Part shown: positions 9,215 through 59,100 of the stretch, piece after piece
Layout: each line of letters starts with the position of its first letter
Position numbering within the stretch: position 1 is the stretch's first letter
Virus record (IMG/VR): IMGVR_UViG_3300025087_000044
Location: 35,114 to 99,113 of that record
Direction: 5' to 3' (one strand)
From: a virus
Length of the DNA: 64,000 nt
Made by a program: the position numbers and the translations under genes
The notes under the pieces: generated by a model
What the model was told of the DNA's origin: nothing
Database searches by the model: none
The model's input: only the letters and a program-made list of their open reading frames with translations

Positions 9215-9727
9215 ATGAAAAATTCCCTACAAGCATTAAAAAACAGAAAAGAGAAAAGAAAGTTTTTAAAGAAGACAATAGACCAAAGTTCGTTTTCTCA
9301 CCACGTAGAAAGAGTTTGTAAGGATTGTGGAGAAATAAAAAAGTGCGATTGGATGAGTGAGTTTAATGCAAATGGAACACCTCAATATAGAGCAAGATGT
9401 AAGGAATGCCATAATAAGTTGATTAGAAAAAGAAGGGTGAAGCGTTGGCCGTATATATTAAAAAAGAAAAGAGACAATCAAAGGATTGTGAAACAGAGAT
9501 GCGTTGATTATCTTGGCGGAAAATGTTGTATGTGTGGATATGATAAAAGCATAAGAGCTTTAACCTTCCACCACAAAAACAGGAAAGATAAAGAAAAGGC
9601 GATTTCAGTTATGATAGTTAATAATTCTTTTCGGAAAATAAAAAAAGAATTAAAGAAATGTGTTTTGGTGTGTTTTAACCGTCACATGGAAATAGAAGAA
9701 GAGTATGTAAAGAATAACAGTAAATAG
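9215..9727 (+). CDS. free-standing HNH endonuclease (possibly degenerate)
   Basis: CKDC/CKEC; YLGGKCCMCGYDK...LTFHH...CVLVCFNRH, with the last Cys replaced by Arg. Confidence 0.75.
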   Translation: MKNSLQALKNRKEKRKFLKKTIDQSSFSHHVERVCKDCGEIKKCDWMSEFNANGTPQYRARCKECHNKLIRKRRVKRWPYILKKKRDNQRIVKQRCVDYLGGKCCMCGYDKSIRALTFHHKNRKDKEKAISVMIVNNSFRKIKKELKKCVLVCFNRHMEIEEEYVKNNSK

Positions 9728-20349: not shown

Positions 20350-20826
20350 ATGAAAAAGAATATCAACAAAAAGGTTTCTATAAATAGATGGAAACGCTTT
20401 AGTCCGTTGCAACAAGCAATGATTGAACGCAATAATCCATGTTTTACAATCACAATTAAACCCAAAAAGCAGAAGACAAAGCATTTAAAGCAAGACCCTA
20501 ACCAGAATCAGTTTTCGCTTTTTACTGGAACTTATGATGAATATTTAAAGTCTGATATTTGGCTGAAAATTAGAAATGAGGCTGTTAGACTGCAGAAGTG
20601 TTGTTATGTTTGTAGGTCTTTTGACTTCTTAACGGTACATCACAAGTGTTACGCACAAAAAGGAAGAGAAAAACAGAAGCATTTAGTTGTACTTTGCTGG
20701 AAGTGTCATAAAGCTGTACACAATTTAATGATAGACAACAAGACTATAAGTTTAAAAAATGCTCATGAAGAATATGCTAAACTGTGGAGACTAGGAATAA
20801 GAAAATATGAAGCTTTAGATGGATAA
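20350..20826 (+). CDS. HNH endonuclease family protein
   Basis: YLKSDIWLKIR...CYVC...VHH...LCWKCH. Confidence 0.8.
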   Translation: MKKNINKKVSINRWKRFSPLQQAMIERNNPCFTITIKPKKQKTKHLKQDPNQNQFSLFTGTYDEYLKSDIWLKIRNEAVRLQKCCYVCRSFDFLTVHHKCYAQKGREKQKHLVVLCWKCHKAVHNLMIDNKTISLKNAHEEYAKLWRLGIRKYEALDG

Positions 20827-29517: not shown

Positions 29518-30985
29518 TTGGGTAAAGGACAACTGGTCAAGCAGGGGAAATAAGTTGGATTTCAATAATAGAAAATATCTTGAGCAGGTTTATAAAGACC
29601 AAAGCCAAGAGATTGTCTATAAGAAATCTGCTCAGGTGGGAATAACTGAAAGGATGGTGTCAGAGGCGGTATGGCTTCCGGACCAGATGCCAAACAATTC
29701 ACTTTATCTATTTCCGACTTCGACTACCATGTCAGACTTGGTTCAGGAGCGTGTGGATATGCCATTGAACAACTCTGATTTCTTGCGAGAGATTTCAGCA
29801 AGAGCCAAGAAGTTAATGGGCAAGCAGGCGGACAACGTGGGATTGAAGCGGATGTCCAAAGGCTATATCTATTTCAGAGGAAGCAATAGTCCTGCAATGA
29901 TTACCTCTGTTTCAGCTGATGCCATATTCGTTGATGAGCTGGACAGGATGACAATGGAGAACGTTCCTTATTTTGATAAACGGTTATTGAATTCCGATTT
30001 AAAATGGAAGCGTTGGGCAAGCACACCAACCGTTCCAGGTTACGGGATAGACAAGAAATGGATGGAAAGCGACCAGCATATTTATCTGGTTAAGTGCAGC
30101 CATTGCAATGAGATTCAAGAACTTACATTCTGGGATAATGTTGACGATGTTAATGAAACGGTTATCTGCAAGCGATGTCATAACATTATCATTCCATGGA
30201 CGTTGAGCGGTGAATGGGTCAAGACCAAGGAGTCAGAGGTTAGAGGATATTACATCAACCAACTTTATTCGCCTAAACTTGATTTGCATGACATGATTAA
30301 GGCTTCAATAAAGACTTCCGATTCAGATGTACAGCAATTTTACAATCAGAACTTAGGTCTTCCGTACGAGCCTAAAGGAGCAAAGTTGAACAATGCTGAT
30401 ATCCAGAGTTGTATCAGAGATTATGTTTATCCAGCCAACGAAGAAACTGAATTTATCGGGATTGATGTAGGTAAGGTGTTTCATGTTGTGGTGTTGGGAG
30501 TTAATCGGTTCTTGGATGCACAGTCGTTTAGGACAAAAGAAGAACTGATAAACTTCCTTTCGGGTAGGAATTTCAAAGGAATGGTAATTGACGCATTGCC
30601 CGAGACCAGAGTTTCACAAGAGGTTGTAAGTTCATTCTCAGGCCGAGCACATTATTGTTTCTATGCTTTTTCAAAACCAAGTACTGATGAATGGTGGAAG
30701 GTTGATGAGGACAAGGTGGGTACGGACAGGACTTTATCATTAGACGTTCTATTCAACCGTATTAAGACGCAAGACTTAGAGATGCCCAAGAACATCTTGG
30801 AGCATACTGAATTCATTGCTCACTTAAAGTCAACGTCAAGGATAGTTGATATGGAAGGTTCAAAACCCGTGGTTGAGTATAAAGAAACAAGTGCCGACCA
30901 TTATCTGCACGCCATGAATTATGCCAATTTGGCAAAAGACATATTCGAAAAGACTAATTCAGAACCTGTAATAATGTTCATATAG
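29348..30985 (+). CDS. terL: terminase large subunit (GpA-like)
   Basis: KSAQVGITE Walker A, FVDELD Walker B, ASTPT, zinc ribbon, GIDVG...DHYLHA nuclease. Confidence 0.92.
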   Translation: MELENNNLEQSLLKDSQFRMMDQKKRSNQMKILEMIVQMEKIKLEGKRSLWKKSYFDWVKDNWSSRGNKLDFNNRKYLEQVYKDQSQEIVYKKSAQVGITERMVSEAVWLPDQMPNNSLYLFPTSTTMSDLVQERVDMPLNNSDFLREISARAKKLMGKQADNVGLKRMSKGYIYFRGSNSPAMITSVSADAIFVDELDRMTMENVPYFDKRLLNSDLKWKRWASTPTVPGYGIDKKWMESDQHIYLVKCSHCNEIQELTFWDNVDDVNETVICKRCHNIIIPWTLSGEWVKTKESEVRGYYINQLYSPKLDLHDMIKASIKTSDSDVQQFYNQNLGLPYEPKGAKLNNADIQSCIRDYVYPANEETEFIGIDVGKVFHVVVLGVNRFLDAQSFRTKEELINFLSGRNFKGMVIDALPETRVSQEVVSSFSGRAHYCFYAFSKPSTDEWWKVDEDKVGTDRTLSLDVLFNRIKTQDLEMPKNILEHTEFIAHLKSTSRIVDMEGSKPVVEYKETSADHYLHAMNYANLAKDIFEKTNSEPVIMFI

Positions 30986-49614: not shown

Positions 49615-49633
49615 ATAATAATTGTATAACAGT

Positions 49634-52327
49634 ATGGACAAGAAATACTTAAAAGCGATAACCAAAAGACAGAAGAATGGTTCACTGCTTGCGATTGCGT
49701 CAACTGAGAATAAGGATAGAGTCGGAGATTCTTTGAAAGCTGAAGATTGGGATTTTAAGCATTTTCAAAATAATCCAGTCCTTCAGGCAGGCCATGATTA
49801 CAGGCCTCAGTATACGATTGGAATTGCAGAGAATCTTAAGGTTGAGAACGGACAAGTTACGTTCACGCCAAAGTTTCATAACATCACAAAACTTGCCCAA
49901 GAGATAAGCAAGATGTATGAAGAGGGTTTTTTGACTGCTTGGAGTGTTGGCTTTATTCCCAAGGAATCTAACGTAGAAATCAAGAAGAATCAACTGCTTG
50001 AGGTTTCAGCAGTTGCCGTTCCTGCCAACCCTTATGCTTTGACTTCTTTAAAGAGTTGCAAGAAAGAATTGGAGAGTGTTGATAATGATGTTATAGAAAA
50101 TATAAAAGAGTGGGTAACTAAAGAATATGACGAGTTAACTGAACAGCCAGTCGAAGAGCCAGTTGTTGAAGCACCCGAAGAAGGTGTTGATGAAAAGATT
50201 TGGGATGATTCTGAAACAGAGGTAAGGTATAGAGTCAAAAACCCTGAATTATTCGAGCAAGATTCTTTTAGAACCATTGCCATAAAAGAAGACAAGCCAT
50301 CAATCAATGCTGTTATTGGAAAGCTCATCGGAGAAGAGTCAACAACTATCCAATCGCTTGTTTTCTCTAAAGATGAGGGCCGGACGTTAGAAGATGCGAA
50401 AACTTGGGTTGAAGAACATCCTGACATTAAAGCTATAGGAGAAGAGGACGTTCCATTGCCTGACGAAACGGTCCCTGAAGACATGCCAATGGATAAGCCT
50501 GCCGAAGACGCAGAAGAGTCTGAAAGCGATAAGCCTGAAATGATGAAGATGCAAACGGGAGAAACCAATGGACACACGCACGAGGCTGAGTTCGGTAAAG
50601 AATCTGGAAACGGAAAAACCAATGAAGTTGAAATGCACTATCATGACATTGAAAATTTTATTGTAAAAGAAGCTGGAGAAGTTGCTCACACTCATTCATT
50701 AGATGTTCAGCCTGAAGAGGGGAATGAAGATGAGGAGGTTGTGATAGAAGAGACTGGCTTGAGGGAGTTTAAGTATAAGGAGAGATGGAACAAGTCGTTA
50801 TCAAAATCGTTCGACATTGAAAATGCTCCGTCGATAACAAATAGCCCGATGTTTAAGATTTACACAAAGTATCTTGAGTGCAGCGTGAAGGACGTATTTG
50901 TTAATAGTACATTCGTTCCGTCTCCGATGATTGGAAATTACTTAAATGCTGTAAAGAATATATTGTCTGGATATAACTTGAAAGGCACTAGGGGATATGA
51001 TTTGTGGAGTGGAAATGAAATTCCACCATTATCTGAAGTCATTAAATTGAACTCATCTAGTTCAGACGACTTCCTTGTTCAAGGAACTCAGTATTACGAA
51101 AACGAAGGAAAGGGTTTTGTTGTACAGTATCAGCCAGTCTGGGGAGGAATGAGTGTCGACATATTGACTTCCAGAAATGACAAGGATTTCAATAAGAACA
51201 TAAAGAAGTTAATTGAAGATTACGCAGAGAAGAACAATAAACTAAAAGGAGAAATGTTTGCTCTAAGCGGTGAGTTCTTGGTTAAGACTGATGAACGGTT
51301 TGATGATATTGTGCTAGATGCAGTAGTTAAGAAATCAATCGTGAACACATCTAGTCAGATGGTTAAGAAGGGCATTGAGTTCGCCAGTCGAGGAATGATA
51401 TTCATGGGACCGCCAGGAACAGGGAAGACTAAAACGTGCAGAGCCATAATGAATAGTTCTGATTCTACGTTCATCTGGGTATCAAGCAAGGATTTAAGGG
51501 CTTACGGAGCGGTTGAATGTATAAGTTTGGCTTATTCTTTAGCTAGGAAGATTGCTCCTGCAATCATCTTGTTTGAAGATATTGATACATGGATTAAGGA
51601 TTATGTTATTGATGCGTTGAAGACTGAACTTGACGGGCTTAATTCCACCAAAGCTATCCTTACAATCCTTACGTCAAACAATCCTGAGAACCTGCCTGAT
51701 TCATTGATTGACAGACCAGGAAGATTCCATGAAGTGCTTGAATTCGGACTTCCTAATAAGGCATTGAGGTCAGAGATGATTGTAAAATTCATAGGAGATT
51801 CCATTGATTCAGTTGACACGGATAATCTTAACAAGGTTATTGATGACACAGAAGGAATGTCAGGTGCACATATTAAAGAGTTGGTTGAATACGCCAAAGT
51901 GATATCGGAAGAAGAAGCGGTCAGTCTTGATGTGGCTTTAGTAAAGAGTCTTGACAAGATAAAGAAACAGAGAGAGTTGATAAGCACTATACAGTCAAAG
52001 GCATTTAATCTGAAATTAAAGGAAGGAAGAGTATTGTCAACTAAAAACATTGAAGTAATTAACCAAGCGATAACTGCTCAAAAGAACTCAGTTCAGGTAC
52101 TTGAGAAACTTTTAGAAGAGTCATCAGCAATGAATGACGCTTCCAAAGCTCAAAAACCCTTTAACAAGAACGAGAGTTTAGCTAAAGGTCGGACAGAACC
52201 CCAAAAACGGATGGAGCAGAAAACCATAGGTCAGATGGAGACATCAGACCAAATAGTTTTACGGGTTCTACAAAAAATAGCGGGGCAATCTTGCTACGCT
52301 TTAAACAAGTTGAATAGAAAAATATGA
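49634..52327 (+). CDS. HK97 prohead protease fused to acidic/His-rich linker and AAA+ ATPase
   Basis: ASTE..DR.GD, NPVL..H, SVGF, LLEVSAVAVPANP; GPPGTGKT, ILFEDID, TSN, DRPGRF. Confidence 0.88.
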   Translation: MDKKYLKAITKRQKNGSLLAIASTENKDRVGDSLKAEDWDFKHFQNNPVLQAGHDYRPQYTIGIAENLKVENGQVTFTPKFHNITKLAQEISKMYEEGFLTAWSVGFIPKESNVEIKKNQLLEVSAVAVPANPYALTSLKSCKKELESVDNDVIENIKEWVTKEYDELTEQPVEEPVVEAPEEGVDEKIWDDSETEVRYRVKNPELFEQDSFRTIAIKEDKPSINAVIGKLIGEESTTIQSLVFSKDEGRTLEDAKTWVEEHPDIKAIGEEDVPLPDETVPEDMPMDKPAEDAEESESDKPEMMKMQTGETNGHTHEAEFGKESGNGKTNEVEMHYHDIENFIVKEAGEVAHTHSLDVQPEEGNEDEEVVIEETGLREFKYKERWNKSLSKSFDIENAPSITNSPMFKIYTKYLECSVKDVFVNSTFVPSPMIGNYLNAVKNILSGYNLKGTRGYDLWSGNEIPPLSEVIKLNSSSSDDFLVQGTQYYENEGKGFVVQYQPVWGGMSVDILTSRNDKDFNKNIKKLIEDYAEKNNKLKGEMFALSGEFLVKTDERFDDIVLDAVVKKSIVNTSSQMVKKGIEFASRGMIFMGPPGTGKTKTCRAIMNSSDSTFIWVSSKDLRAYGAVECISLAYSLARKIAPAIILFEDIDTWIKDYVIDALKTELDGLNSTKAILTILTSNNPENLPDSLIDRPGRFHEVLEFGLPNKALRSEMIVKFIGDSIDSVDTDNLNKVIDDTEGMSGAHIKELVEYAKVISEEEAVSLDVALVKSLDKIKKQRELISTIQSKAFNLKLKEGRVLSTKNIEVINQAITAQKNSVQVLEKLLEESSAMNDASKAQKPFNKNESLAKGRTEPQKRMEQKTIGQMETSDQIVLRVLQKIAGQSCYALNKLNRKI

Positions 52328-55300
52328 GTAAGAAAATTACAATCAACGGTAAAACCTACATCGAAGATGAGGGAGCCGCTCCTGAAACAACGGAGGAAGA
52401 AGTGAAGGAAGAAGGTGTAAGCGAGGAAGTGATTGACGAAACAGCACAGAAGATTCTCAAATCCTTGGGTATTGATGAGTTGAGAAAGTCAATTGCTGAG
52501 CTCAAACAGGCCACAAGCAAAGATAACGGGATTGACGCTAAGACCGCCTCTCTAATTGACCTTGCAGGCTTGATGAAGAAAGATGTCAATCAGTTGACAG
52601 TACAAGAGAAAATCATCGGATTCTTTCAGGCCATGGTTCAGAACAACCAGACCGTCATGAAAGCTTTGTCCGAGGGTTAGATAGCAGAAGCCCTCATTAA
52701 AATCGGTGAATTGCTGGGAACTCCTTTTTCAAAGGACAATCAGCAGCCAAGCTTTCGCTTAAATGGCGACTGAAGGTTCAACGACTAGGTCTTGAAACTG
52801 CGTATAGCAGAATATAACAGACCCAAGAGTGCCGATTACTAGCTCGTTAACAATTAAACTTGACTAATTCTCATAATTACTTTAAAATTATTGTATAATA
52901 ATTAAATTGTATTTATGAGAAAGATTCTCCAAAAGATAAAAACTGCCAGAGGAATTGGCTATGTAATGGAATGCGTTAATTGTCATAAGCCTTTCAGAAT
53001 AAAAAAATGGGATTATGACAATTTAAGAAAGGGAACTTATTGTTCTAACAGCTGTCGAGGTGAGTATCAACGTGTTTCTCTTGTTGGAAAACTTAATCCT
53101 AATTGGAAGGGTGGAAAGGTTCAGATAAAATGTATGGTTTGCGGAACAAGGGTTATGATTAAAGTTAAAGATGCAAAAAGGGGTGGTAAGTATTGTAGCA
53201 AACGGTGTAAAGACTATGACAACAGTAGAGTTGTTAAAATGAATTACGCAAACAATCCTGGACTAAGAGACAAGACAAAGCACGTTGGCGATAAAAACGG
53301 AAGATGGCTGTGTGGAAAGTCGTTTGAACCTTATACAACCTCTTTTAACGAACATACTAAGAACATTGTTAAAGACAGAGACAATAGAGTCTGTATGATT
53401 TGTGGAGTTAACGAAAAAGACCTAAGAGAGTCTTTAAACGTTCATCACATTGATTATGATAAAAAGAATAGCAACATTAACAATCTCATTTCATTGTGTA
53501 ATGTGTGTCATTCTAAAACAAATTCAAACAGAGAGTATTGGAGAAATTATTTGTCAAGTTTAATTGTTAACTAGCAGTAATGATATAGTCTGAACTGCAT
53601 AGTAATATGCAGATGCAACAAAATTAAAAAAGTTGCGATAACATAATGACTGCTGCCGATGGAGGATATCTTTTCCCTAAACGATTCATTGGGGCATACT
53701 AAATAAGTATGAAAATTGGGTGAACTGCTGGAACGTCCACTAAGTGGATAATCAGCAACCAAGCTAAAGGTTAAAATCTTTAGAAGGCTCAACGACTAGA
53801 GGGTGAAACTTGTTAAAAGAATATAATCCCTCCACGAGTGCCCAACTTCTTGAATTTGTAGCTGATATGTTGTATAATGTAATTATAATAAATAATTAAA
53901 TTATATGCGTAAAGGCTCTAAGATGACATTAGAACAGAGAAAAAGAGTTAGTCTTGCTCATTTTGGACATCCTGCATGGAATAAGGGTAAAAAGATGCCA
54001 GAATGGTGGGGAAGATTGTCTTCAGAAAGAGTATTAGCTGGAATAGGAGGAATGAAGGGAAGACATCACTCAGACAAGACCAAAGAAAAACAGAGAAAAT
54101 CCAATAAGACAAAACTACTTTGGCAAAATCCTGATTATAGAAAGATGATGTCCGAAAAGCACAAATGGCTTACTGGAAAAAATAATCCTGCTTATATTGA
54201 CGGAAGAAAGCCTCTAGTAATGAGAGTAAGAAATTCAGAAAAATATGAGAAATGGATTAAGTCTGTTTTCGAGAGAGATGATTACACTTGTCAAGACTGC
54301 AACGTTAGAGGTGGTAAATTAGAAGCACATCACATCAAAGGTTTTTCTAAGATATTTTCAGAAAATAACTTTAAAACCTTTGAGCAAGTAATGGACTGTG
54401 AAGAAATGTGGAATATGGACAATGGATTAACTCTCTGTAAAAAATGTCATAGCAAGATAAGTACAAGAAGATGATATAGTCTGACCACTAGATATACATA
54501 AAACTAGTGAAGCAAAAGATAAAGAACTTTTGCGATAACATAAATGGATGAGTTTGTTTCCGAGGTAGTTCGCGATTTGTCCAACGAGATGTATATGCGT
54601 AAACAACATTGCGCCCTTGCGTAAGCAAGGATAATCGGGTTAAACGGGGAAACTCCCTAACAAGGACAATCCCGTAGCAAGCATGAGGTTAAAATCTTAT
54701 GACGCTCTAACGACTAGATAGTGAACCTCTTAATTGAGAACATAACCTATCCACGAGTGCCCGACATTAGCTCTTTACAACTTAGATAGTTGAGACTCAA
54801 GAAATTTGATATGTTCTTGAAGACATTTAATAAATGTTTTCTCACCATTTCCCTTTTTGTCTGTTATCACAAGGTTTTCTGGGCGATTGTCATTTCTAAT
54901 GCCGTTTAGATGGTGAACAACATCTTGTTTAGTTAATTGCTTGTTATATTTAATAGAAGCTATTAAACGATGTTCGGGAACGTATCCATTAGAATCTGAT
55001 AAATAATGATTACGCATTTTTACTTTAACATATCCGTCTGCTGTATTAAACTTGCCCCCACGCCACATTGGATTACCTGATAACATCTGTCTTTTAGAGA
55101 TTGTTGCTCCACGTTCAGGAAGTTTATAGTTACAAGATGCGCATCTAAGATTTTTCTTGGGAATTTGTTTATTGCAATCAATGCAAAAATTAACAATCTT
55201 TTTTCTCAACATATTATCTAAGTTTAATTATTATATATATATTGTATATGTATAATCATTATAAGTAAAGTTCAAGTGAAGATATAGTCTGAACGCTACA

Positions 55301-57518
55301 GTAATGTAGTGACATAGAAGATAAAGAACTTCTATTATAACAAAATTGAATGAAGTTACGGTGGTTCCGATGAAGAGGGACATCATGAAGATTCCGACAT
55401 TGACATCTGGCCCGAAAGTAGCTTGGACGGCTGAGAATGCCGCGAAAAGCACAACGACAGCTACGTTCGATGAGGCGACTTTGACCGTCAAAAAGATGGC
55501 CGCCATAAAAATACATTGTGGCACTATACTGAAAAGTATAGTTAAAAATTCGGTAAATTGCTGGAAAACCCTGTTTCAAAACAGGACAATCAGCAGCCAA
55601 GCTTTGGCTTAAATGGCCAATGAAGGTTCAGAGACTAGGTGGTGAAACTATATATATAGAATATATCCACTCACGAAAACCGAATATCTATTTTGAACTT
55701 TGACAATTGACAATTACACTCTCATTATATATAATACAATTATTTATAAACTAATTGTGATATTGTATGAGAGAAAGAATAATCCTTGATAAAAAGACAA
55801 ACAGACTTGGAACGCTAAGTTATTTTGTGAAATGTGTTATGTGCGGAAAAGAGTTCTGGATAACAGAAAGTCAATTCAAAGACGGAAGAGGCCTTTACTG
55901 TTCACAGAAATGTTATCACTCTGACCCATTAGTAATTGATAATTTCAACAAAAGTTTTGCTTCGTTTAAAAAGGGAAAAGCTTCATGGAGTAAAGGGTTG
56001 ACTAAAGAAACTAGTATAATTATAAAACGAATGGCAGAAAAAAGAATTGGTGATAAGCATCCGTTATGGAAAGGAGGAAGAGCCAAAATGACTGGCGGAT
56101 ATATCGGTGTATTGATTCCAGAGCATCCAGATGCCAATGTTAACGGACGAGTTTTAGAACATAGATTGGTAATGGAAAAGAAACTTGGAAGAAGACTTGT
56201 TCATTACGAAGAGGTCCATCATAGAAACGGAATTAAAACTGATAACAGACCAGAAAACTTAGAGCTTGTATTGAAGTACAAACATCAAGGAGAAATTCAA
56301 TGTCCATATTGTCAATGTATGTTTAAAATAAAATAGATAATGATATAGTCCGACCTTACAGGAAACTGTAAGAAGCAGAAGATAAAGAGCTTTTGCGATA
56401 ACAAATTGAATGTACATCTCGGACGAATTGGTAGAAGATTCTGATAGCATCGACATCGTTAAGTTCATTGTTACTTTGTTCTCTGAAGCGATTGGAACCG
56501 AAGAAGACCGTGTTATCACAGCGGGTAACGGAACTACTGAGCCTACCGGCTACAATACTTCCGCCAATCCTGGAACGATAGCATGTTCTGGCAACTTGAG
56601 TTATGCCAACATGGTAGACCTCGAGTACACTTTGCCTGCGAAATATCATCGCAATGCAAAGTTCTTCGCGCACAGGAACAACATTCGAGAACTCCGCAAG
56701 ATGGTGGATTCCAATTCACGTCCTTTGTGGAGCGACCCGATTGCTCCTGGCCAGCCCCCGACATGGCACGGATTAAGTGGTAGTCCCTGTTATGCGTAAT
56801 CATAACAGAAAAGACGGTGAATTGCTGGAAAACCCTGTTTCAAAACAGGGCAATCAGCAGCCAAGCTTTACCAGTAATGGTTTAGAAGGTCCAACGACTA
56901 GGGGATGAGTCCACGTAGTGGATGATAATTTCCCCCAAGAGTGCCGTCCACCTTGAAAAAGGTGATGATATAGTCTGAACACTGACTATAAATAAAATCA
57001 GTGAAGCAAGAAATAAAGAGTTCTTGCGATAACATAATTGACCAAGTCGTTGAAGACAACAATCTGCCTGAGTCAGTTATCGCCTTTGGCGATTTGAAGC
57101 AGGCTTATTGGTTGGGCGACCGCAAGTCTATGACAGTGAAGGTAACTCAGGACACTGAGACTGCATTAACTGGTACATCGTACAAGTGCAGTATAAAGAG
57201 GATGAATTGCTGGGAAGCCCTGAAATGGGTTATCAGCAGCCTAGCTTTGCCAGTAATGGCTTAGAAGGTTCAGAGCATAGAGTCCGAGTCCCTCCGGGAC
57301 GATAATGACTCCACGAGCGTCCTCAATCCATTAGTTTAATGGATTATGATATATGCCGACCACCAGATATGAATAAAACTGGTGAAAAGTCAGATAAAAA
57401 ACTGGCTTGTTAAAAATATTTAGTTGTCCATGACCAAACAGCTGTCCGTGTTGTTTCTCGCATTGCAGGTAATGTAGTTAATCCGTACGCTATCAAGAAA
57501 CTTACAAACATTCCGTAG
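52324..57518 (+). CDS. HK97-fold major capsid protein, spliced from 7 exons (393 aa)
   Basis: join(52324..52677,53649..53678,54547..54600,55349..55506,56409..56773,57041..57166,57424..57518) = 1182 nt open frame: ...ALSEG-TAADGGYLFP-DEFVSEVVRDL...MR-NEVTVVPM...KKMAAI-MYISDELVEDS...WHGY-QVVEDNNLP...FGDL...TAF-VHDQTAVRVVSR...NIP*. Confidence 0.93.
52678..53648 (+). mobile_element. group I intron 1 of capsid gene (971 nt, HNH ORF in P8)
   Basis: P1 GAGGGU/GCCCUC; AATCAGCAG; AACGACTAG; GATATAGTC; terminal G 53648. Confidence 0.92.
52915..53574 (+). CDS. intron-encoded HNH homing endonuclease
   Basis: zinc-finger repeats, NPNWKGG; CMICG...VHHIDY.K.N....NLISLCNVCH. Confidence 0.88.
   Translation: MRKILQKIKTARGIGYVMECVNCHKPFRIKKWDYDNLRKGTYCSNSCRGEYQRVSLVGKLNPNWKGGKVQIKCMVCGTRVMIKVKDAKRGGKYCSKRCKDYDNSRVVKMNYANNPGLRDKTKHVGDKNGRWLCGKSFEPYTTSFNEHTKNIVKDRDNRVCMICGVNEKDLRESLNVHHIDYDKKNSNINNLISLCNVCHSKTNSNREYWRNYLSSLIVN
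53679..54546 (+). mobile_element. group I intron 2 (868 nt, HNH ORF in P8)
   Basis: P1 CCCU/GGGG; P10 AUUCAU/AUGAGU; core motifs; terminal G 54546. Confidence 0.9.
53905..54474 (+). CDS. intron-encoded NUMOD3-HNH endonuclease
   Basis: WNKGKK, GRHHSDKTKEK; VFERDDYTCQDC...HHIK...LCKKCH. Confidence 0.88.
   Translation: MRKGSKMTLEQRKRVSLAHFGHPAWNKGKKMPEWWGRLSSERVLAGIGGMKGRHHSDKTKEKQRKSNKTKLLWQNPDYRKMMSEKHKWLTGKNNPAYIDGRKPLVMRVRNSEKYEKWIKSVFERDDYTCQDCNVRGGKLEAHHIKGFSKIFSENNFKTFEQVMDCEEMWNMDNGLTLCKKCHSKISTRR
54601..55348 (+). mobile_element. group I intron 3 (748 nt, antisense HNH ORF in P8)
   Basis: P1 GCGU/GCGC; AACGACTAG; AAGATATAGTCTG; terminal G 55348. Confidence 0.9.
54775..55212 (-). CDS. 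intron-encoded HNH endonuclease on the antisense strand
   Basis: YVPEHRL...VHHLNGIRNDNRPENL. Confidence 0.85.
   Translation of the reverse strand: MLRKKIVNFCIDCNKQIPKKNLRCASCNYKLPERGATISKRQMLSGNPMWRGGKFNTADGYVKVKMRNHYLSDSNGYVPEHRLIASIKYNKQLTKQDVVHHLNGIRNDNRPENLVITDKKGNGEKTFIKCLQEHIKFLESQLSKL
55507..56408 (+). mobile_element. group I intron 4 (902 nt, HNH ORF in P8)
   Basis: P1 GCCAU/GUGGC; P10 UACAUU/AAUGUA; core motifs; terminal G 56408. Confidence 0.92.
55767..56336 (+). CDS. intron-encoded HNH endonuclease
   Basis: LEHRLVME..LGR...VHHRNGIKTDNRPENL. Confidence 0.88.
   Translation: MRERIILDKKTNRLGTLSYFVKCVMCGKEFWITESQFKDGRGLYCSQKCYHSDPLVIDNFNKSFASFKKGKASWSKGLTKETSIIIKRMAEKRIGDKHPLWKGGRAKMTGGYIGVLIPEHPDANVNGRVLEHRLVMEKKLGRRLVHYEEVHHRNGIKTDNRPENLELVLKYKHQGEIQCPYCQCMFKIK
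56774..57040 (+). ncRNA. group I intron 5 (267 nt, no ORF)
   Basis: P1 GGAU/GUCC; short P8 CACCTT-GAAA-AAGGTG; terminal G 57040. Confidence 0.92.
57167..57423 (+). ncRNA. group I intron 6 (257 nt, no ORF, variant P7)
   Basis: P1 ACUGCAU/GUGCAGU; P7 GCAUA/UAUGC; P8 AATCCATTA/TAATGGATT; terminal G 57423. Confidence 0.88.
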
Positions 57519-57777: not shown

Positions 57778-59100
57778 ATGGGAGAGTATTCTCAAGAACT
57801 ACCAAACATGCACCCTGCTACAGGCAGGGTCATTAAGGAAGATGGAACCACTAAGAACATAGCGGATGCCATTATTACGGACATTAACGGGAACGAAGCG
57901 GTGAGGACCACAGCTACCATGTCTGGAGATGTCAATGTTGACCAGACTTCAATCAATGTTAACGCCTACGTTGGAAAACCGCTTGGAACCAATGGGGATT
58001 TTGTTACTGCCAGGACCGGTGACACTACGTTTACTTGCGCAACTTTGCCTGTTGGAGTTGCCGCTATAAAGAGCGAGGACATTGAGTTAATCAGGCAGAT
58101 AAGTGCAGCTGGAGTAGTGGTTGCTTCTTACAGTAGGGATGATGTAACCATAACGGTTGCAGGCACAGACCCGACTACGGTTACCGTTGCAGGTGCTGTT
58201 TTTGGAGCGACTGATACGATTATTGTTTATACCAACATCAGTAAGACTAATTTTATAGCGTCATCGTCAAAGCCTGCTGCCGTCGCGACTGGTGCTATTG
58301 TACGTCCTTATTTTGACATATACGGCAGGCAGCGAGTGTATGACGAGGGTGGTGGAGGAGTTGGTGGAGGCGGTTTCATGACTTACGTGTTTGATTCATT
58401 GAATTCTTTTAGGCTTGGAACTACGCTCTATGTCGCAGCTACTCAGTTTTCCGTGAGCGGACATAATTTCACTCCCAATCCAGCTGCTTTGATTAAGATT
58501 GACAGATTCAGTTCTGCCGGTGCTTATCAGGAGACTATAACTCCATATTCTCATGTCATTGCTGTTTCAACGACAAGCGGAGTGTCTACATATACGGTAA
58601 CTGGAATGGCTGCTTCTGCCGGTGATACATTTGTCGTGTACCAGCAAGGTCCTGAAAGAACCATAACAAATTCAAGTGATTCGCAGAGAATTGACAACAT
58701 CAACCCGCTATCGTATCAGACTATTCCTGACAGCTGGGTAGATACAACCAATGTAGCCGCGGCTACGGTATATTATCCGTCTGCTTTAGGTTATTCCAAT
58801 GACGGTACAAAAGACGAATCGACATCGTATAAATTCATTGACGCGGACGGCACTATTACCTTAACGCATGAATCCACTAATGATGAAGACCAGACCAACG
58901 CGGATTGGGTTGATGATACCAAGGCGTTGTACGATAGGAACGCGGACGCTACGGGAGCTTCTTCGTTCACGGTGACTAACGGTACGATGACGGGAATCTT
59001 AGATTCGGATAATAACAGCGCAAGGTTTAGTCGTTGGAAAGTGGTGTATTCAGGCTCGACCAATACCGCTATCCTTAAATCCAAGAGAAAGGCTTTGTAA
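57778..59100 (+). CDS. putative virion structural protein
   Basis: Thr/Gly/Ala-rich, beta-rich, follows the capsid gene. Confidence 0.6.
   Translation: MGEYSQELPNMHPATGRVIKEDGTTKNIADAIITDINGNEAVRTTATMSGDVNVDQTSINVNAYVGKPLGTNGDFVTARTGDTTFTCATLPVGVAAIKSEDIELIRQISAAGVVVASYSRDDVTITVAGTDPTTVTVAGAVFGATDTIIVYTNISKTNFIASSSKPAAVATGAIVRPYFDIYGRQRVYDEGGGGVGGGGFMTYVFDSLNSFRLGTTLYVAATQFSVSGHNFTPNPAALIKIDRFSSAGAYQETITPYSHVIAVSTTSGVSTYTVTGMAASAGDTFVVYQQGPERTITNSSDSQRIDNINPLSYQTIPDSWVDTTNVAAATVYYPSALGYSNDGTKDESTSYKFIDADGTITLTHESTNDEDQTNADWVDDTKALYDRNADATGASSFTVTNGTMTGILDSDNNSARFSRWKVVYSGSTNTAILKSKRKAL

Follow-up and report, generated by a model that had tools for sequence, protein, structure and literature searches.

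An uncultured tailed phage very probably has its single major capsid gene, which is of the HK97 type, at nucleotides 52324–57518 of a 64-kb stretch of viral DNA (the window), where six mobile, self-splicing group I introns of one family interrupt it. The window corresponds to the final 64 kb of the 99,113-bp IMG/VR virus record IMGVR_UViG_3300025087_000044, which is linear and has an estimated completeness of 81%. The open reading frames (ORFs) of the region are short pieces, some of them matching the Pfam family Phage_capsid (PF05065), that alternate with four HNH endonuclease ORFs. An uninterrupted capsid ORF was not found in the region, just as a preliminary description of this DNA had stated.

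A Major Capsid Gene in Seven Exons

Joining the seven exons, all of which lie on the + strand, yields 1182 nt with a single, terminal stop codon and junction phases of 0, 0, 0, 2, 1, and 1. The exon and intron coordinates, the length of the frame, and the phases given in the preliminary description proved right to the base. Exon 1 (52324–52677, 354 nt) encodes amino acids 1–118, the variable N-terminal part of the capsid protein. It is followed by two very short exons, exon 2 (53649–53678, 30 nt, encoding TAADGGYLFP) and exon 3 (54547–54600, 54 nt). Exon 4 (55349–55506, 158 nt), exon 5 (56409–56773, 365 nt), and exon 6 (57041–57166, 126 nt) match PF05065 with scores of 23.8, 67.1, and 23.9 bits, respectively (the cut-off is 24.2 bits), and exon 7 (57424–57518, 95 nt) includes the TAG stop codon. 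Altogether, 77% of the capsid gene is intron.

A search with exon 5 retrieved 69 relatives, mostly uninterrupted proteins of 385–430 amino acids, several of which carry the name "HK97 family phage major capsid protein" in the source annotation; a metagenome scan added few further relatives, short and uninterrupted. When the 393-amino-acid spliced product was aligned with 16 uninterrupted relatives, gaps or insertions were seen at none of the six junctions, which bears out the earlier claim that HK97 capsid motifs are restored across them. The closest relatives, P0002 and P0001, are 77% and 75% identical to the spliced product. A profile hidden Markov model built from 15 uninterrupted relatives matched the product with an E-value of 1.3e-207 in a single domain, residues 1–393 being aligned to profile positions 1–407. 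For structural comparison, the uninterrupted relatives were used as a proxy for the spliced product. The 15-relative profile matched solved capsids of the HK97 family (6tba, 2.4e-31; HK97 gp5, 1ohg, 1.7e-9), in agreement with the assignment made in the preliminary description, and P0002 matched PHROG major head protein families.

The six junctions (SEG↓TAADGG, LFP↓DEF, MR↓NEV, AAI↓MY, HGY↓QV, and TAF↓VHDQ; arrows mark splice sites here and below) fall in the most conserved motifs of the capsid protein. The mean conservation of the six junction-flanking residues was 0.873, whereas that of the protein's folded part was 0.771, and only 272 of 20,000 random six-site sets reached 0.873. Such a pattern would be expected if endonucleases drive the insertion into sequences that cannot drift.

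Group I Ribozyme Cores in the Six Insertions

The Rfam group I intron model RF00028 matched all six insertions, in every case on the + strand, and had no match outside the capsid gene anywhere in the 99-kb record. Judging by E-values that go down to 2e-19 and by the location of all matches of the record within one gene, chance is excluded as their source. The curated gathering score of the model is 50 bits, and it was exceeded by two introns: intron 5 (56774–57040, 267 nt, without an ORF; 78.9 bits, E-value 2e-19) and intron 4 (55507–56408, 902 nt; 59.4 bits, with a 3′ piece scoring 23.2 bits, or 33.5 bits in the whole-record scan). Intron 1 (52678–53648, 971 nt; 48.0 bits for the 5′ half and 28.5 bits for the 3′ half) and intron 2 (53679–54546, 868 nt; 47.8 bits) were just under this score. 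Intron 6 (57167–57423, 257 nt, without an ORF; 30.3 bits) and intron 3 (54601–55348, 748 nt; 23.5 and 27.3 bits), the latter having the most divergent core, were well under it. The group I identity proposed for all six blocks was thus recovered by a covariance model, two of them above the gathering score. The four ORF-bearing introns were matched as separate 5′ and 3′ halves, and this splitting by the ORFs lowers their scores.

The boundaries of the introns are those of group I elements. The last base of every upstream exon is T, and the last base of every intron is G. In all six introns, a P1 helix of 6–8 bp could be drawn that places a U·G pair exactly at the 5′ splice site that restores the frame. 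P1 is composed of the last 4–7 bases of the exon and the first 1–2 bases of the intron, paired with a guide located 10–20 nt downstream. The pairing is GAGGGU↓U/AGCCCUC in intron 1, whose first three bases are an in-frame TAG, CCCU↓AA/UUGGGG in intron 2, GCCAU↓AA/UUGUGGC in intron 4, and ACUGCAU↓U/AGUGCAGU in intron 6. Bases just 5′ of the guide pair with the first 4–8 bases of the following exon, forming P10, also in each of the six. The U–G pair in P1, the terminal G, and the P10 pairing that had been pointed out earlier are therefore present in every intron. The six guide sequences are all different, and this should hold each ribozyme to its own splice site.

When aligned, the six introns have a common layout: P1, P2, P3, P4–P5, P6, P7, a hairpin region of ~40 nt, P3′, P8, J8/7–P7′, P9, and a terminal hairpin. 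The J8/7–P7′ segment, GAUAUAGUC, is conserved among them. P3 occurs in compensating variants (AUCGG/CCGAU, UUGGG/CCCAA, GACGG/CCGUC, and GAGGA/UCCUC). P4 is UGCUGG/CAGCA, except in intron 3, where it is compensated as ACGGGG/CCCGU, and P7 is GACUA/UAGUC, except in intron 6, where it is compensated as GCAUA/UAUGC; the core motifs listed in the preliminary description hold with these two exceptions. In an RNAalifold analysis of 14 related intron 5′ halves (the six studied here and eight from relatives), P4, P5, P6, and the P7.1/7.2 hairpin were predicted, and for 14 of the 20 predicted pairs at least one sequence retains pairing through changes on both sides. The minimum free energy (MFE) of the two ORF-less introns is much lower than that of shuffled sequences (z-scores of −5.69 for intron 5 and −4.35 for intron 6), and their MFE structures recover the core helices. 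The ~40-nt insertion with a covarying hairpin between P7 and P3′ is present in all six introns. It occupies the P7.1/7.2 position, where extra helices are typical of subgroup IA, and by layout only the introns can be called IA-like.

Endonuclease Genes within the Introns

Introns 1 to 4 contain HNH endonuclease ORFs, all of which scored above Pfam cut-offs and matched PHROG HNH families. The ORF of intron 1 (52915–53574, + strand) codes for 219 amino acids and matches PF01844 with 25.5 bits (cut-off 21.4) and phrog_1271 with an E-value of 3.5e-23; it stops just before the J8/7 segment. The 189-amino-acid product of intron 2 (53905–54474, + strand) consists of an HNH_2 domain (PF13391, 28.8 bits, cut-off 21) and a NUMOD3-like part, and the stop codon of its ORF lies inside J8/7. 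In intron 4, an ORF of 189 codons (55767–56336, + strand) matches PF13392 with 38.2 bits. Since each of these ORFs ends at or just before J8/7, the three + strand HNH genes appear to occupy the loop of P8. The ORF of intron 3 (54775–55212, 145 amino acids; PF13392, 27.9 bits, cut-off 24.8; phrog_20891, 4.3e-23) is located in the same region of its intron but runs antiparallel to the capsid gene, on the − strand. Its product is a paralogue, 39% identical, of the + strand HNH protein of intron 4.

HNH proteins found at the same site in different genomes are, judging from their similarity, orthologous: the intron 2 protein is 59% identical to its counterpart in relative L005 and 65% identical to that in L052, and the intron 4 protein is 63% identical to that in L052.

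Four more HNH-domain matches lie outside the capsid gene, at positions 1450–1596, 20507–20629, and 29717–29845 of the record and at 20602–20724 of the window. The 99-kb record thus has about eight HNH-domain matches, yet group I ribozyme matches are confined to the capsid gene.

Split Capsid Genes in Related Viruses

The spliced protein was mapped onto 87 related viral loci. Interrupted capsid genes were found in 10 of the loci, on nine contigs; the insertions occupy sites 1, 2, 4, and 6 as well as three further positions. L035 is interrupted at sites 1 and 6; L005/L020 (one contig) and L037 at site 2, with an additional 3′ element; L052 at sites 2, 4, and 6; L053 and L058 at site 4; and L056 at sites 2 and 4 and at a new site near amino acid 174. 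The interruption is at amino acid 262 in L055 and at amino acid 123/124 in L087. The number of interruptions per gene in the relatives found ranges from none to three.

RF00028 matched introns at sites 1, 2, 4, and 6 and near amino acid 174 in L035, L037, L052, L056, and L058, with scores of 41–89 bits. No RF00028 match with an E-value of 0.05 or less was obtained for the interruptions of L055 and L087. The site 2 insertion of L005 (L005:6919-7787) had no match in cmscan even at E-values of up to 10, but it can be aligned with window intron 2 and retains intact motifs for P4, P6, and P7, and we therefore treat this result as a search miss rather than as the absence of an intron. Homologues of window intron 2 are found at the same site in L005, L052, and L056, and a homologue of window intron 6 is found at the same site in L035. 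Many database "proteins" of 240–270 amino acids are fragments of split capsid genes. Some of them begin with M followed by DEFRAE exactly at site 2, and others read into sequence that resembles the beginning of intron 6.

Ribozyme cores, compared from P3 to P3′, resemble other cores of their own genome more than they resemble the cores at the same site in other genomes. Core identity is 82% between window introns 1 and 4, 86% between sites 1 and 6 of L035, and 85% between sites 2 and 4 of L056, compared to 65–71% for same-site cores of different genomes. These statements are based on pairwise identities and not on tree topology; the intron tree contains one well-supported branch only, and intron 3 forms its longest branch. 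The likeness of cores within a genome suggests either that the scaffold has spread to new sites in the gene or that copies have undergone conversion.

A peculiarity was seen in the site 6 introns of L005 (8530–8650) and L037 (6030–6140). Their P1 loop is enlarged by ~90 nt, located downstream of the 5′ splice site and ahead of the guide, which encode in frame a diverged version of the final ~30 capsid codons together with a stop codon. Therefore, unspliced RNA would still encode a full-length capsid protein. The true last exon of L005 follows the site 6 intron, at 9541–9627. Intron 6 of the window has no such insert.

Genomic Setting

The split gene is flanked by a 901-amino-acid ORF on its 5′ side and a 440-amino-acid ORF on its 3′ side. 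The upstream ORF (49622–52327, + strand) encodes an N-terminal prohead serine protease domain joined to a complete AAA ATPase, a fusion that is also conserved in L052; its stop codon overlaps the capsid start codon (ATGA). The product of the downstream ORF (57778–59100, + strand), which directly follows the capsid gene, matched no Pfam or PHROG family.

In the whole 99-kb record, PF05065 matches are limited to the exons of the split gene, and a second capsid gene, which would have spoken against the proposed one, was not found. A megablast search of the locus against GenBank phages produced no match, and the best capsid of a cultured phage is only ~38% identical; for these reasons there is no isolate available for comparison.

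Cellular bins with this capsid family were limited to L100, L102, and L103 (contigs of Patescibacteria/Magasanikbacteria metagenome-assembled genomes) and L101 (a Pacearchaeota bin, DPANN). L101 and L102 have the portal–protease–capsid order seen in the window phage; in the short L100 and L103, only a protease adjoins the capsid gene. L102 and the IMG/VR viral region L043 gave identical matches, and the two are probably the same region, contained here in a 78.5-kb contig. These bins hint, though only weakly, at Patescibacteria as hosts of the lineage.

Alternative Explanations

One alternative, very improbable, is that the gene is decaying. At least one intron, most plausibly 3 or 6, would no longer splice, and either the capsid copy would be dead or the phage defective. 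Scores of 23–30 bits against a threshold of 50 for introns 3 and 6, and the length of the intron 3 branch, could be taken as signs of such decay. However, the deviations in P4 of intron 3 and P7 of intron 6 are compensated on both strands, and the same-site homologue of intron 6 in L035 has the same P7 variant. Moreover, the frame and the conserved residues are retained in all exons, a second capsid gene is absent from the record, and several contigs carry the allele. Exact sequences of exon 1, of the ORF running from exon 5 into intron 5, and of the intron 4 HNH ORF are present on seven contigs, and that of the intron 2 HNH ORF on eight (JGI, Logan, and ENA); therefore, the intron-bearing allele has been assembled repeatedly.

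This recurrence on seven to eight contigs from three independent sources also speaks against a second, very improbable explanation, according to which the population is intron-polymorphic and the assembler followed a path that joined all intron-bearing variants, so that no real molecule has six introns. The record is a metagenome contig, relatives are polymorphic for the presence of introns at the window sites, and the intron cores share near-identical stretches of ~50 nt that could mislead an assembler. On the other hand, exons 2 and 3 are so short, 30 and 54 nt, that introns 1, 2, and 3 are linked within single reads or k-mers, and the exons are colinear and complete.

It is extremely unlikely that the insertions are endonuclease cassettes that stay in the RNA, with the capsid either put together from fragments translated one by one or missing altogether. 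Two of the insertions (introns 5 and 6, among them the best group I match) have no ORF whatsoever, exons 2 and 3, of 10 and 18 codons, are too small to be genes of their own, duplicated gene ends were not found within the capsid gene, and ribozyme core helices are present in every insertion. Inteins were rejected because the insertions contain stop codons in the capsid frame as well as ribozyme cores.

Several points weigh against a functional gene with six self-splicing introns and should be kept in mind. First, splicing in vivo is something that we infer from RNA structure and protein colinearity. Second, the sub-threshold RF00028 scores (introns 3 and 6 well under, introns 1 and 2 slightly under) mean that the splicing competence of each individual intron is not certain. 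Third, the linkage of six introns on one molecule rests on metagenome assembly, notably across exons 4–6. Fourth, a capsid gene may be located in the missing part of the ~81%-complete genome. Finally, the cleavage activity of the HNH proteins and their target sites are putative.

Discussion

The self-spliced capsid gene that we favour would be expressed as follows. A late transcript would hold all seven exons. Each intron would fold independently and choose its own 5′ splice site by means of its unique internal guide, which forms P1 with the U·G pair. It would then be excised by two guanosine-initiated transesterifications, the next exon being aligned through P10. Six such splicing reactions would convert the transcript into a 1182-nt mRNA, from which the 393-amino-acid capsid protein would be translated. 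Endonuclease activity and homing we infer from the established biology of group I introns and homing endonucleases (PMC3984707, PMC3943268). Presumably, the HNH enzymes cleave capsid alleles that lack the intron in relatives infecting the same cell, after which the intron would be copied in, and this would account for the location of the introns in the most conserved capsid motifs. The ribozyme cores appear to have been exchanged or spread among sites within a genome, with endonuclease genes staying with their site.

Going further, and tentatively, one may speculate that the capsid gene of this lineage, whose members are possibly phages of Patescibacteria (Candidate Phyla Radiation), has become a contest zone. 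HNH genes would be fixed at their targets, and one ribozyme scaffold would time and again be re-aimed by new guides, or homogenised by conversion, and so occupy further sites of this gene. The stacked endonucleases would serve as weapons against co-infecting relatives, and the intron load would be selected for instead of just being tolerated. We consider this scenario rather doubtful.

Phage group I introns are classically single and located in DNA-metabolism genes. Landthaler and Shub (1999) reportedly described a late gene of Staphylococcus phage Twort, orf142, that contains three group I introns, and exon skipping is said to occur there. Twort orf142 resembles the window gene in that multiple group I introns, related to one another, are inserted at closely spaced sites of one late gene; it differs in having three introns instead of six and was not described as a major capsid gene.

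Single group I introns are present in the capsid genes of lactococcal phage Tuc2009 and mycobacteriophage LittleE, and splicing of the latter was demonstrated by reverse transcription PCR and protein sequencing (PMC3706429). The LittleE intron contains an HNH gene in the opposite direction (PMC3706429), as does intron 3 of the window. Each of these two capsid genes has one intron, while the window gene has six, their splicing being predicted from sequence. Outside of phages, the major capsid gene of Faustovirus E12 is divided into 13 exons by 12 introns; five of the introns belong to group I, and two of these five carry homing endonuclease genes (PMC6247863). It resembles the window gene as a main capsid gene that is broken up into many exons, in part by group I introns. 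Faustovirus, though, is a giant virus of eukaryotes whose capsid protein is unrelated, whose endonucleases are of the GIY-YIG and not the HNH type, and whose capsid gene also has spliceosome-like introns. The statement in the preliminary description that no comparable capsid gene is known was, in view of the single capsid introns (PMC3706429) and of Faustovirus (PMC6247863), too strong; what stands is that six introns exceed the published maximum that we found for a phage gene, which is three.

That number is reached in the DNA polymerase and terminase genes of Bastillevirinae (PMC11878797). Jug phages have ~18.5 introns per genome, with terL split into only two or three fragments, and junction reads back splicing for 37 of 76 predicted introns (PMC12880540). 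In both groups, as in the window, phage genes are split by group I introns that are often accompanied by HNH genes. However, these introns come in twos or threes and are scattered over many genes, whereas the six of the window phage are all in its capsid gene, the rest of the 99-kb record giving no group I match. HNH homing endonucleases are also carried by the DNA polymerase introns of Bacillus phages SPO1 and SP82 (as cited in PMC12908238 and PMC3706429). These systems, likened here by description, share group I introns with HNH genes with the window phage but differ in the host gene and in having a single intron.

No phage capsid gene with six introns came up in a literature search, and six is twice the highest published count found for a single phage gene. 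The gene is an extreme case of a known phenomenon, the occurrence in phage genes of mobile group I introns with HNH endonucleases. What sets it apart are the number of introns, their confinement to one essential late gene, the micro-exons, and the apparent separate evolution of ribozymes and endonucleases.

The finding has a practical side, in that gene callers report split capsid genes as fragments, and capsid-based detection and classification of phages will therefore miss or mis-size them. For the phage itself, six correct ribozyme reactions, some of them across exons of 30 and 54 nt, would be needed before the most heavily expressed virion gene yields capsid protein. Together with relatives that have none to three interruptions, at shared and at different sites and of group I type in all cases where Rfam found a match, the window gene forms a natural series on how mobile introns accumulate, in which one may ask what keeps closely related ribozymes that share a transcript from mis-pairing and from causing exons to be skipped, and whether ribozyme and endonuclease evolve as separable modules.

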